Shown here in pieces: positions 21,185-25,614 of a stretch of DNA of 38,795 bases (positions are counted from its first letter, which is position 1; the number at the start of each line of letters is the position of its first letter). The DNA comes from a virus, in UHGV virus genome UHGV-0423091; one strand, 5' to 3'. The notes under the pieces are model-generated. The model had not been told where the DNA came from. It searched no databases and was given only the letters and a program-made list of their open reading frames with translations. The translations under genes and the position numbers were made by a program.

Positions 21185-21769
21185 ATGAAAAGTATCCAGG
21201 ACGTCCGCAGGCAAAATCTCAACGACTTGATCGACCGTGAATTCAATGGTGTTCAGACGCGGATGGCAGAAAAACTTGGAACTCAGGCAAATCTGGTAAA
21301 CCGCTGGGCTCTTGGCAAGAAGGTTATCGGCGACCAGGTTGCACGAAAAATTGAAGCTGCCGCCAATAAACCCCGTAACTGGCTTGATATTGATCGCTCG
21401 CTTTCTCAGGAGGGTTTTCAGCCTGTCGGCCCGAGCGATATAGGTCAGCTGGCGGCTCACAACCTGGAACGCTGGATGAGCGAAAGCCGCGACCTTTCAA
21501 CGCAGGGAAAACTACACCGCGCATCCGGCGTCGCCCAGGTGACAATCAGCCGCCTGTTAAACAATGAGGTCAGCGTTTCCATTTCCACCCTGGAGAATGT
21601 TGCATCCGCATTCGGGCGTCACGGCTATGAATTACTGATTCACCCGCACGACCCTGCGACCATCAACTATGATCGCTCGCGCTACGCATTGTTACCCGAA
21701 ACCGAGAAAGCAAAGATCGAAAGTTACATTGAATTTGTCATCAACCAGAACGAAAAAAACAAACAATAA
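21185..21769 (+). CDS. phage repressor (CI role), 194 aa, two HTH-like segments, no S24 peptidase domain
   Basis: Divergent from the Cro-like gene; HTH-like segments near residues 25-45 and 110-135; no Ala-Gly/Ser-Lys autocleavage module; no SD (leaderless-like start). Confidence 0.65.
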   Translation: MKSIQDVRRQNLNDLIDREFNGVQTRMAEKLGTQANLVNRWALGKKVIGDQVARKIEAAANKPRNWLDIDRSLSQEGFQPVGPSDIGQLAAHNLERWMSESRDLSTQGKLHRASGVAQVTISRLLNNEVSVSISTLENVASAFGRHGYELLIHPHDPATINYDRSRYALLPETEKAKIESYIEFVINQNEKNKQ

Positions 21770-21790
21770 AATCATATTTTTCAGTAAGTA

Positions 21791-21816
21791 AGCCGCCAGA
21801 AGGCGGCTTTTTTATT
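21791..21816 (+). terminator. rho-independent terminator after the repressor gene
   Basis: AGCCGCC-AGAA-GGCGGCT followed by TTTTTTATT. Confidence 0.75.
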
Positions 21817-21826
21817 GCCTATTCGA

Positions 21827-21903
21827 TTACCTAATGGGTAATTTTTTTAACTCATATCTATTGACATCAAACCAGATACGCATAATTATTACCTCAACGG
21901 TAA
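21827..21903. promoter_or_regulatory. second operator pair with sigma70-like promoter (TTGACA at 21861-21866) for the plus-strand recombination operon
   Basis: Perfect palindromes at 21827-21841 (TTACC-taatg-GGTAA) and 21889-21903 (TTACC-tcaac-GGTAA), the latter over the -10/start region. Confidence 0.55.
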
Positions 21904-23195: not shown

Positions 23196-24073
23196 GCAAT
23201 GATATCGCAATCACATCACAACCAGGCGCAACTGTAGGTACTGCTGCGGCAATCTTCAGCCCGGAGGGCATGAATCAACTGGTGCGTTTCGCGGAGTTGA
23301 TGTCACAAAGCAAAGCGACTGTACCGAAACATCTTGAAGGCAAACCTGCCGATTGTCTGGCGGTGACCATGCAGGCGGCACAGTGGGGAATGAATCCTTT
23401 CGCCGTGGCGCAGAAAACGCATGTGGTAAACGGAACGTTAGGCTACGAAGCACAGTTGGTAAACGCGGTCGTATCCTCTTCCAGCCTGCTAGCGACACGC
23501 CTGAATTATCGCTGGAGCGGTGACTGGTCGAATGTTAACGGCAAAACAGATAAATCACCGAATCTGACGGTAACTGTGTCAGCAGTTCTTAAAGGAGAAG
23601 CAGAACCCCGTGAGCTTACCATCAGTATGGCGCAAGCCGGAGTGCGTAACTCTCCATTGTGGGAACAGGATCCGCGCCAGCAGCTTGCCTATCTTTGCAC
23701 GAAACGATGGGCTCGCCTGCACGCTCCTGATGTACTTCTCGGTGTTTACACCCCTGACGAATTACAGGAAACGGCACCGCGCGTTGAGCGAGACATTACT
23801 CCGCAAACGACCACTGCTGCGGGAATGAACAGTCTGATCAACGCTAAACCAGCGAAAAAGCCTGATGAGCAAACGCGTAAAGCGGATAGCCGTGATCCAG
23901 AAGAAATGCTGATGGCCTTTACCAGCGCAGCGATGAATTACAGCACTGTCTCCGAACTGGATAAGGCTTACAAATACATTGCACAAAAACTTTCAGATGA
24001 TGACGAACTGCTGGCAAAAGCCACCGACGTTTACAGCGTTCGTCGGGAAGAATTAAACGAAACATCTATGTAA
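23192..24073 (+). CDS. single-strand annealing protein, Red-beta (Bet) family, 293 aa
   Basis: Segments GMNPFAVAQ and ERDITP parallel lambda Beta as I remember it; paired with the exonuclease. Confidence 0.7.
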   Translation: MSNDIAITSQPGATVGTAAAIFSPEGMNQLVRFAELMSQSKATVPKHLEGKPADCLAVTMQAAQWGMNPFAVAQKTHVVNGTLGYEAQLVNAVVSSSSLLATRLNYRWSGDWSNVNGKTDKSPNLTVTVSAVLKGEAEPRELTISMAQAGVRNSPLWEQDPRQQLAYLCTKRWARLHAPDVLLGVYTPDELQETAPRVERDITPQTTTAAGMNSLINAKPAKKPDEQTRKADSRDPEEMLMAFTSAAMNYSTVSELDKAYKYIAQKLSDDDELLAKATDVYSVRREELNETSM

Positions 24074-24122
24074 CCACCACCGCGGCGCCACGCGCGCCGC
24101 ACTGCAACCAAGAGAGGTATTT

Positions 24123-24371
24123 ATGAAAGGTGCATTAGGTAAGAAGGAACTCCTGGCGGTGGTGCCACTGTCATGGAGCACTATCGACCGTATGGAGCGC
24201 GCAGGGGAATTTCCTAAACGCTGGTATATCACCGATAAACGCTGCGCATGGAACCGTGATGAAGTTGAGCGTTGGCTTGATGAACGTCAGGCAGCAAGCC
24301 CGGCAGAGTTCCAGGGTAAAAAACCTCCTGTTCAGCAACGTGTATATCGTCCCGTGAGCAACGCGGCATGA
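24123..24371 (+). CDS. AlpA-family HTH protein (excisionase/regulator), 82 aa
   Basis: Small basic protein with the MERAGEFPKRWYI...W...EVERW pattern typical of AlpA/Vis-type proteins; about 1.2 kb from the integrase. Confidence 0.65.
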   Translation: MKGALGKKELLAVVPLSWSTIDRMERAGEFPKRWYITDKRCAWNRDEVERWLDERQAASPAEFQGKKPPVQQRVYRPVSNAA

Positions 24372-24480
24372 GTGTGCTGCTAAGGCACTGGAGCAAATGG
24401 TCAGGATGGTACTTATTCCTGGCCTCTGTTTCTGCATGGCTTTATCTGCTGGCATTAATTTTCAGAGAGGGTTGGATTAA

Positions 24481-24780
24481 GTGAGAAAGTTAAGCCGACT
24501 TGAAAAATATCACATGAACAAGGTTTCAATGCGCAGCCCTTCAAAGGTTGTTGCCGTTACTCCTGCGGCGATAGAGATCGAAAAACGCGCGATTGAAAGA
24601 GAGAAAAAAGGGCAGTTCCGCATTGCCGCCCACCTTTGGCTTCAGTGTATGGATGTTGCTTCTGGTGATGTTGAGCGTGCAAGGATCGCGGTTCGCAGGG
24701 ACCAATGTATCACAAAAGGTAACGGCCTTCGCCGTGGCGACTATAGCGGCATAGGATGTTGCGGGGTGGTTTATGACTAA
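24481..24780 (+). CDS. small putative regulatory protein, 99 aa
   Basis: Track ORF (GTG start) immediately upstream of and overlapping the methyltransferase start. Confidence 0.45.
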   Translation: MRKLSRLEKYHMNKVSMRSPSKVVAVTPAAIEIEKRAIEREKKGQFRIAAHLWLQCMDVASGDVERARIAVRRDQCITKGNGLRRGDYSGIGCCGVVYD

Positions 24781-25423
24781 GAAATACACACTAATCTATG
24801 CAGATCCACCCTGGGTATACCGGGACAAAGCCGCAGATGGTAATCGCGGTGCCGGTTTTAAATATCCGGTTATGAGTGTGCTGGATATCTGCCGCCTTCC
24901 TGTGTGGGATTTGGCCGATGAAAACTGTCTGTTGGCCATGTGGTGGGTGCCAACACAACCACTCGAAGCACTAAAAGTTGTTGAAGCCTGGGGATTCCGT
25001 CTGATGACCATGAAGGGCTTCACGTGGATAAAATGTGGTAGTCGACAACCAGATAAACTGGTTATGGGTATGGGACACATGACTCGCGCCAATAGTGAAG
25101 ATTGCCTGTTTGCAGTAAAGGGAAAACTACCTCCGCGCATTAATGCAGGGATCGTTCAGTCATTTACCGCACCGCGGCTTGAGCATTCAAGAAAACCAGA
25201 TGTCGTTCGTGAAAAACTTGTGCAATTGTTAGGCGATGTTTCTCGCATTGAACTGTTCGCCCGCCAGTCGTCTCATGGCTTCGATGTTTGGGGTAATCAG
25301 TGCGAAGACCCGGCAGTGCAACTACACCCTGGATACGCATTGGATATTGCCAGATTAACAAATGCATTCAGCAATGCTCCGCTGTCACCAACAGACAACC
25401 AGGGGCGGGAGCGTGCAGCATGA
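24773..25423 (+). CDS. DNA N6-adenine methyltransferase, MT-A70-like (DPPW motif), 216 aa, orphan
   Basis: IYADPPW catalytic motif near the N-terminus; no adjacent restriction endonuclease gene. Confidence 0.8.
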   Translation: MTKKYTLIYADPPWVYRDKAADGNRGAGFKYPVMSVLDICRLPVWDLADENCLLAMWWVPTQPLEALKVVEAWGFRLMTMKGFTWIKCGSRQPDKLVMGMGHMTRANSEDCLFAVKGKLPPRINAGIVQSFTAPRLEHSRKPDVVREKLVQLLGDVSRIELFARQSSHGFDVWGNQCEDPAVQLHPGYALDIARLTNAFSNAPLSPTDNQGRERAA

Positions 25424-25614
25424 ACAGGGCATCACCAGCAGATTTAAGGAAATGCCTTGAAACTGCAAACATGCTTGCACACAGCGGGATCAGGTTTGTT
25501 CCAGTTCCCGCTGTCACTGATGCTGAATTTGCAACGCTGTCAGCAATATTCGCAGACAAAATTGAATCACTGGCAGCAGAAGCCGAGATGGAAGAAAATC
25601 AGCAGAATAATTAA
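25420..25614 (+). CDS. hypothetical protein, 64 aa
   Basis: ATG 25420 overlaps the methyltransferase stop (ATGA); acidic C-terminus. Confidence 0.4.
   Translation: MNRASPADLRKCLETANMLAHSGIRFVPVPAVTDAEFATLSAIFADKIESLAAEAEMEENQQNN

Follow-up and report, generated by a model that had tools for sequence, protein, structure and literature searches.

The window, which is the whole stretch of 38,795 nt from the virus genome UHGV-0423091, carries a 38-codon micro-gene at 24368..24484 on the + strand, between an AlpA-family gene and a PerC-family gene. In the reading that we consider likely, it is a genuine gene of the Uetakevirus early-left operon and encodes a single-helix inner-membrane peptide whose translation is coupled to the preceding gene by reinitiation and which acts through helix-helix contact. 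The initial annotation had left the frame as either a small membrane peptide or a coincidence; conservation of the frame, together with the purifying selection indicated by sequence comparison, supports the peptide. The micro-gene is genuine but already catalogued, not a discovery, and it is ordinary for phage early operons.

Genomic context and predicted peptide

Several E. coli chromosomes match the region at 100% identity, and phiV10 and related phages match it at 98-99%. Identity is 72-79% for the Salmonella phages epsilon15 and SPN1S, Enterobacter phage Tyrion and phages of Klebsiella. Every relative with a genus assignment belongs to Uetakevirus. The window is itself a Uetakevirus prophage of the phiV10/epsilon15 type.

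The gene order was taken from the window ORFs and the phiV10 and epsilon15 records. It runs repressor, terminator, promoter-like site, two small genes, exonuclease, RecT, AlpA/Xis, micro-gene, PerC, MT-A70 methylase and DUF1382. The repressor gene occupies 21185..21769, and the terminator lies 3' of it (21790-21809). Past both is a promoter-like site identified by a consensus scan (TTGACA-17-AATTAT, 21861..21889, + strand), where the early-left operon probably begins. In the epsilon15 RefSeq record the corresponding position, immediately upstream of the initial small gene (gp37), bears three annotated repressor operators, which would put the micro-gene in a repressor-controlled early-left operon. 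The consensus scan returned no promoter-like site nearer the micro-gene on either strand (weak promoters could escape it), and no Rfam family was found in 23500-25500 at E ≤ 1. Overlaps of 4 or 8 bases join nearly all genes of the operon, and without the micro-gene it would contain an atypical 109-nt gap. The window operon includes a DUF1382 gene and its relatives a DUF1317 gene, both encoding small early-operon proteins. The integrase gene lies beyond DUF1382 on the opposite strand and adjoins guaA. A holin/antiholin or other lysis-cassette protein was rejected, as the lysis genes of phiV10 and epsilon15 are on the far side of the integrase gene from the micro-gene.

The micro-gene consists of 38 codons plus a stop, and its translation, read from the window sequence, is MSVLLRHWSKWSGWYLFLASVSAWLYLLALIFREGWIK (38 aa). 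The coordinates, sequence and translation first given for this frame, with its ATG overlapping the AlpA-like stop, are exact. A transmembrane helix is predicted by hydropathy and AlphaFold2 at codons 15-32 (YLFLASVSAWLYLLALIF, 24410..24463, + strand). These residues form one hydrophobic stretch (best 18-residue Kyte-Doolittle window 2.08). The AlphaFold2 model, which was built from the single sequence without an alignment, is one helix spanning residues 3-37 (mean pLDDT 83). Both agree with the single transmembrane helix originally proposed. Trp-rich motifs border the helix (KWSGW ... EGW), small residues crowd one of its faces ([A/T][S/A/G]xxAW), and the N-terminal turn is amphipathic and basic. 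The K+R balance around the helix is 2:2 in the 38-aa form of the window and 3:1 and 3:0 in divergent forms. The peptide is probably orientated N-in, which the K+R count favours only in the divergent members and leaves ambiguous in the 38-aa form.

Phage curators have annotated homologues of this peptide. It matches PHROG 17484 ('membrane protein'), with residues 1-38 aligned to all 38 profile positions (E = 4.7e-27); this family is placed in the category 'moron, auxiliary metabolic gene and host takeover'. Phage RefSeq lists 'membrane protein' entries for phiV10 PhiV10p35 (gp35, YP_512290.1), epsilon15 gp32 (NP_848240.1, UniProt Q858E3), SPN1S_0036 and Tyrion gp33, and the PhiV10p35 record notes one predicted C-terminal transmembrane helix. 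phiV10 gp35 is 97% identical to the window peptide, and epsilon15 gp32 and Tyrion gp33 are 79% identical to it. All three have 38 aa and occupy the same slot between AlpA and PerC with the same overlaps. The window allele has V3 and phiV10 has A3; nothing else of substance differs. The exact window peptide is deposited in GenBank as a 'putative integral membrane protein' of E. coli O7:K1 CE10 (AEQ13680.1) and also occurs in phage YDC107_2. Searches of Pfam, NCBIfam, PADLOC and PDB sequences with the peptide or its profile gave zero matches. Our search of the published literature, which included peptide substrings, found no paper mentioning the peptide, and the micro-gene is absent from the text of a Ribo-seq preprint on UPEC CFT073.

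Conservation and selection in the reading frame

A bare 38-codon ORF is within chance expectation. The chance of an open frame of this length is (61/64)^38 ~ 0.16, and the window ORF list holds 79 ORFs of at least 20 aa in 4 kb. Its conservation exceeds chance. An open frame starting on the AlpA stop is present in phiV10, epsilon15, SPN1S, Tyrion, PAT1 and three Klebsiella phages, in EPEC E2348/69, and in genomes of Citrobacter werkmanii, C. braakii, Pseudocitrobacter faecalis and Superficieibacter electus. The frame is thus intact in prophages of seven genera (Escherichia, Salmonella, Enterobacter, Klebsiella, Citrobacter, Pseudocitrobacter and Superficieibacter). In the phage collection, the 36 records with this AlpA type are precisely those with the micro-gene and with this PerC type. 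A scan of 1.84 billion representative proteins yielded about five true clusters of the micro-peptide. The 39-aa forms P0003 and P0004 keep M1, W11-S-G, L18, A23-W24, L27, I31 and G-W. Across the aligned 38/39-aa members W11, S12, G13, L18, A23, W24, L27, I31, G35 and W36 are invariant. The conserved columns of this alignment span the whole helix, with an invariant core of ...AW..L..I...

Frame conservation and codon substitution in relatives were the checks proposed in the initial annotation. The frame is intact in all relatives examined, and purifying selection acts on the amino-acid sequence in the micro-frame and in no other. Pairwise NG86 estimates of dN/dS in the micro-frame range from 0.11 to 0.47, with dS of 0.3 to ~1.6. 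The dN of the micro-gene (0.08-0.25) is similar to those of AlpA (0.04-0.21) and PerC (0.17-0.29). Its dS is somewhat below that of its neighbours, and some constraint at the nucleotide level may act on the micro-gene. Frames +1, +2, -0 and -2 contain stops and have omega mostly above 1. The antisense frame -1 has a low omega like that of the micro-frame, as expected of two frames that share third positions, and the window, phiV10 and Tyrion each carry stops in it. When substitutions were scattered at random, keeping the observed numbers of transitions and transversions, more amino-acid changes arose than were observed in 8 of 8 pairs (P <5e-5 to 0.02). Between 76 and 85% of the simulated sequences gained a stop, since the micro-gene is rich in TGG codons.

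Variation among close copies follows the same pattern. IMG/VR contains 325 contigs with a relative of the micro-gene, and the 80 closest of these comprise 9 haplotypes with 8 polymorphic sites. Six of the eight polymorphisms are synonymous and two are conservative (V3A and E34D); seven fall at codon position 3. Stops and frameshifts are absent from these 80 copies, and ATGA...GTGA is found in 80/80. Synonymous sites in the stretch TGG-TCA-GGA-TGG are invariant, and they are too few to interpret.

A 32-aa ORF with the same ATGA start occupies this slot in Enterobacter phage BUCT554 and E. coli ECE218 and EC2. Its pattern is MTALKKH[IV][GS]RWSDVY[LM][YC]LAVVAYLMWLAAVIS, and the variant reads MTALKKHIGRWSDVY[LM]YLAVVAYLMWLAAVIS in BUCT554 and in Enterobacter and E. 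coli prophages. It shares with the 38-aa form the N-terminus MTAL..H..RWS, a single hydrophobic helix and the slot after AlpA, whereas overall identity is only 35-48%. A TGA at the R33-equivalent codon cuts off the REGWI[KR] tail and with it the PerC overlap, so that the variants stop 15 nt before PerC. Relics of the old tail lie in frame past this stop (EVWIR* in EC2). Between the two forms dN is 0.46-0.70 and omega 0.55-1.03, whereas AlpA and PerC differ by ~0.2-0.3. A dN so far above that of the flanking genes indicates rapid change of the peptide along the lineage that led to 32 aa. Among random walks with the same number of substitutions, 0.4% remained open with equal hydropathy and 2.7% remained open with a hydropathy window of at least 1.6. 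The 32-aa cluster at 90% identity has 74 members, and 15 of 15 that were retrieved are 32 aa long. Two cluster members each occur on at least 1000 contigs, and the named members are mostly from Enterobacter. The dN/dS within the variant rests on 4-6 differences only. A decaying pseudogene is unlikely given the retained hydropathy and the uniform length across many contigs. Judged by sequence, what is kept in both forms is a basic N-terminus plus a hydrophobic helix.

Junctions and translation signals

The upstream partner of the micro-gene is an AlpA-family excisionase/regulator gene (24123..24371, + strand, 82 aa; Pfam PF05930, PHROG 66). Its stop TGA (24369-24371) overlaps the ATG of the micro-gene (24368-24370) as ATGA (24368..24371, + strand), which we propose as a termination-reinitiation site. 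The coupling to the AlpA-like gene noted at the outset is strengthened by the relatives examined, in which this junction is ATGA throughout, with GTGA in Klebsiella phages. The downstream partner is a PerC-family transcriptional activator gene with a GTG start (24481..24780, + strand, 99 aa; Pfam PF06069, PHROG 868). The initial annotation had the micro-gene ending just as the next gene begins; in fact its stop TGA (24482-24484) and the PerC start GTG (24481) form a 4-nt GTGA overlap (24481..24484, + strand). In most relatives, including epsilon15, Tyrion, Klebsiella and Citrobacter, this second junction is ATGA. The PHROG 868 profile match covers PerC residues 1-99 of 99, and the N-terminal KLSRLEKYH is kept in relatives that have the PerC start at the overlap. 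The 300-nt PerC ORF is also called by PGAP.

Shine-Dalgarno strengths were assessed as predicted duplex energies with the anti-Shine-Dalgarno. The AlpA start reaches -8.1 kcal/mol and the micro-gene start -2.0 kcal/mol, the weakest in the operon. The PerC GTG at 24481 reaches -7.0 kcal/mol, and the internal ATG at 24514, which is the PerC start in phiV10 RefSeq, has 0.0 kcal/mol. The PerC value derives from a Shine-Dalgarno-like motif AGAGAGGG (24464..24471, + strand) that lies 9 nt before the GTG and places GAGAGGG in micro-gene codons R33-E34-G35. We conclude that PerC owns a predicted ribosome-binding site inside the micro-gene. A purine-rich GAGG-like motif stays at this spot in the 32-aa variants, past their earlier stop. 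The conservation of the C-terminal R-E-G may partly reflect this embedded site and not the peptide. RNA folds at both micro-gene junctions are no better than those of shuffled sequence (24450-24525: z -0.58).

Possible roles of the micro-peptide

If the micro-gene is a coupled early-left gene for a membrane peptide, as we consider likely, it would be transcribed only with the repressor off, during infection or induction, alongside the recombination and excision genes. Ribosomes that end AlpA at the UGA would reinitiate on the overlapping AUG, tying micro-gene output to AlpA output. Reinitiation is proposed because the micro-gene's own Shine-Dalgarno is very weak. With the micro-gene stop overlapping the PerC start and the PerC Shine-Dalgarno in the last codons, ribosomes could then be handed on to PerC. 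The peptide would insert into the inner membrane as a single pass, probably N-in, with its amphipathic basic N-terminal turn at the cytoplasmic face. During early lytic development it may contact a host or phage membrane protein helix-to-helix, and the likely contact surface is the small-residue face [A/T][S/A/G]xxA-W. The fast turnover toward the 32-aa form fits a specific conserved partner poorly.

Other functions of a membrane peptide have less to commend them. Hok, Ldr, TisB and Ibs-type toxins are small, with a single hydrophobic helix and charged flanks, and lambdoid phages keep host-killing functions in repressor-controlled early operons. The micro-peptide resembles these toxins in size and in its helix with charged flanks, its gene sits in such an operon, and the loose sequence constraint across the 38- and 32-aa forms with hydrophobicity kept would suit a generic membrane activity. 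It could then be a membrane-damaging 'kil'-type or type-I-toxin-like peptide that shuts the host down by depolarising or perturbing its inner membrane soon after induction. We regard this as unlikely. Pfam, NCBIfam and PADLOC gave no toxin-family match, the consensus scan showed no antisense promoter, Rfam returned no sRNA in 23500-25500, and a separate transcription unit is missing. The near-invariant WSGW and EGW motifs shared by the 38-aa forms point to a specific fold or contact, and low expression via a weak coupled start is unexpected for a killing function. Like type I toxins (Hok, Ldr, TisB, Ibs and ShoB), the micro-peptide is a short hydrophobic single helix on a mobile element, whereas its gene is coupled mid-operon, without an antisense RNA or promoter, a transcription unit of its own or a family match. 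The specific type-I toxin/sRNA reading was rejected on the missing Rfam family and antisense promoter. Small inner-membrane proteins often serve exclusion, epsilon15 serotype conversion uses small membrane proteins, and the PHROG 17484 category includes morons. All three would suit a lysogenic-conversion or superinfection-exclusion 'moron' that is expressed from the prophage and blocks phage DNA entry or modifies the envelope. However, the micro-gene is promoterless, mid-operon, overlapping its neighbours and downstream of the repressor operators, a position in which it should be silent in a lysogen. It is also present whatever the host genus or O-antigen type, and the epsilon15 alpha-polymerase inhibitor and O-antigen polymerase are other genes, adjoining the tailspike gene. 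A moron is therefore very unlikely. A serotype-conversion polymerase inhibitor (epsilon15, D3 Iap-like) was rejected as well, as the epsilon15 inhibitor is epsilon15_p02, by an O-antigen ligase-family gene ~5 kb from gp32.

The overlaps at both ends of the micro-gene, the PerC Shine-Dalgarno in its last codons, its UGA stop and its 1:1 linkage with PerC (36/36 phage records) could also be expected of an ORF without a peptide role. Such an ORF would be a translational relay or uORF carrying ribosomes from AlpA to PerC, or a cis-acting leader whose stalling sets PerC translation. Other small ORFs of E. coli offer a precedent, in which translating the upstream ORF alters how strongly the gene after it is expressed (bioRxiv 10.1101/511675). 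A relay needs an open frame and not a particular sequence, yet omega is ~0.15-0.25 with synonymous sites nearing saturation. An arrest peptide needs conservation in its last 10-15 residues, whereas here conservation is strongest in the hydrophobic core. The 32-aa variants, without the tail and 15 nt short of PerC, still keep the helix, and folding around the PerC start gave no stable masking structure (z -0.58). We give a relay or leader little credence. Least probable of all is that there is no gene here, only a chance open spacer or coding in the +2 frame as an N-terminal extension of PerC. A chance probability of ~0.16 for 38 open codons and the omission of the micro-gene by PGAP would allow a spacer, and three phage records (PAT1, BUCT711 and ST512-KPC3phi13.3) annotate a PerC of 369-375 nt that starts inside the micro-gene in the other frame. 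However, the micro-frame alone is open in all relatives and is the only open frame under purifying selection, and a spacer would leave the operon with its atypical gap. In the window and phiV10 a TAA closes the +2 frame immediately ahead of GTG 24481. This frame also meets a stop in Tyrion and has an omega of 0.9-2.7, and the PerC extension was rejected on these stops and omega values.

A more elaborate role is conceivable and improbable. The AlpA, micro-peptide and PerC triad could form a functional unit in which reinitiation would keep the peptide at a constant ratio to the excisionase. The peptide would bind an inner-membrane protein of the host, or would hold PerC or AlpA at the membrane or titrate them there. 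Excision and early transcription would thereby be linked to the state of the membrane or envelope, and the 38-aa and 32-aa forms would be alternative specificities. If true, the peptide would be a small phage factor of a new type, serving host takeover or decision. The micro-gene would gain interest only with a target or a phenotype.

The closest functional parallels to the coupled membrane peptide that we favour may be chromosomal. E. coli small inner-membrane proteins such as AcrZ and MgrB have a single helix and fewer than 50 aa, and they bind and modulate larger membrane proteins. The micro-peptide is like the chromosomal small membrane proteins in size, single helix and aromatic/charged flanks, and in being missed by automatic annotation. 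By analogy, it likely shares with the AcrZ/MgrB-type proteins an action through helix-helix contact. It differs in having no sequence similarity to them and in being phage-encoded, mid-operon and confined to one phage genus. We know of no report of a transmembrane helix in the small proteins of the lambda exo-xis region. That region contains the small ORFs ea8.5, orf60a, orf61 and orf63 (PMC7093339), which like the micro-gene are short, poorly characterised early-left genes by recombination/excision genes. The likeness to the ORFs described there is positional only, with no homology found.

The micro-gene is a clean small case of a real gene kept by phage curators and lost from standard bacterial annotation. 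Frame-specific selection, junction conservation and the strict linkage to AlpA and PerC justify adding it to prophage annotation. The same evidence suggests corrections to the PerC start in phiV10 and to the over-long PerC in PAT1, BUCT711 and ST512. PGAP leaves the micro-gene uncalled in all ~90 E. coli chromosome records listed, so that 109 nt stand empty in its place. Of 5426 complete E. coli genomes, 567 (~10%) carry the region from AlpA to PerC.

Start site of PerC and its longer annotations

The PerC gene begins in the phiV10 RefSeq record at an internal ATG equivalent to window position 24514, giving a 267 nt gene. The predicted Shine-Dalgarno strength is -7.0 kcal/mol for the upstream GTG at 24481 versus 0.0 kcal/mol at 24514. 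Initiation at the GTG adds the N-terminal residues RKLSRLEKYH, which are kept in relatives, and PGAP likewise calls a 99-aa protein. Because the GTG has a good Shine-Dalgarno sequence and the added residues are conserved, the product is likely the 99-aa PerC.

Three relatives carry PerC annotations of 369-375 nt whose start lies within the micro-gene, read in the +2 frame; the micro-gene itself is missing from all three records: PAT1 (locus L005, 1404-1778), BUCT711 (L007, 1404-1772) and ST512-KPC3phi13.3 (L009, 1334-1702). The extension is probably a mis-annotation, since the +2 frame has an omega >1 and stop codons interrupt it in the window, phiV10 and Tyrion.

Micro-gene variants and apparent AlpA disruption

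A 32-aa form of the micro-gene (loci L006 1369-1467, L018 546-644 and L019 561-659) is found mainly in Enterobacter prophages. It has a stop at the R33-equivalent codon, followed by remnants of the former tail, and has evolved fast, with a dN of about 0.5-0.7 versus about 0.2-0.3 for the flanking genes. The dS of the micro-gene is somewhat below that of neighboring genes. The Ser codon TCA and the Gly codon GGA of the W-S-G-W motif (24395-24409, AAATGGTCAGGATGG) do not vary at their synonymous positions in any of the six 38-aa lineages compared, and TGGTCAG is also retained in the 32-aa forms. So small a number of sites does not allow a nucleotide-level element to be called.

The AlpA gene (24123-24371 in the window) appears to be disrupted in phage TL-2011b (locus L011, 1124-1545), where the sole annotated ORF of the region is 111 nt. 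The AlpA match there has 68% identity and exceeds those in other records by 15 nt; TL-2011b keeps an intact micro-gene. In some assemblies AlpA is frameshifted, giving 77-aa products, and 119-aa products also occur in which the shifted frame continues into the micro-gene (proteins P0013, P0023).

Operon signals and mosaicism

Downstream of the repressor gene (21185-21769), a terminator and then a predicted promoter lie at 21790-21889. The terminator is strong and intrinsic (AAGCCGCC-AGAA-GGCGGCTT plus a T-run), and the promoter is near-consensus (TTGACA-17-AATTAT). This layout suggests that the repressor transcript ends here and that a separate, repressible promoter drives the early-left operon.

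The operon's only real intergenic gap, between RecT and AlpA, holds a GC-rich hairpin (GCGGCGC-CACGC-GCGCCGC, 24082-24100; -17.3 kcal/mol, z -1.85) that lacks a T-run. The epsilon15 record labels the equivalent site 'stem-loop; transcriptional pausing'. Through this hairpin, the recombination genes and the AlpA-micro-PerC block may be expressed separately.

E. coli WP8-S17-ESBL-12 is 100% identical to the window across 24000-24900. After the methylase gene it carries a Ser/Thr phosphatase gene (locus L020, 4798-5457), whereas the window has the DUF1382 gene (25420-25614). The comparison shows that the operon has undergone mosaic exchange in its integrase-proximal part.
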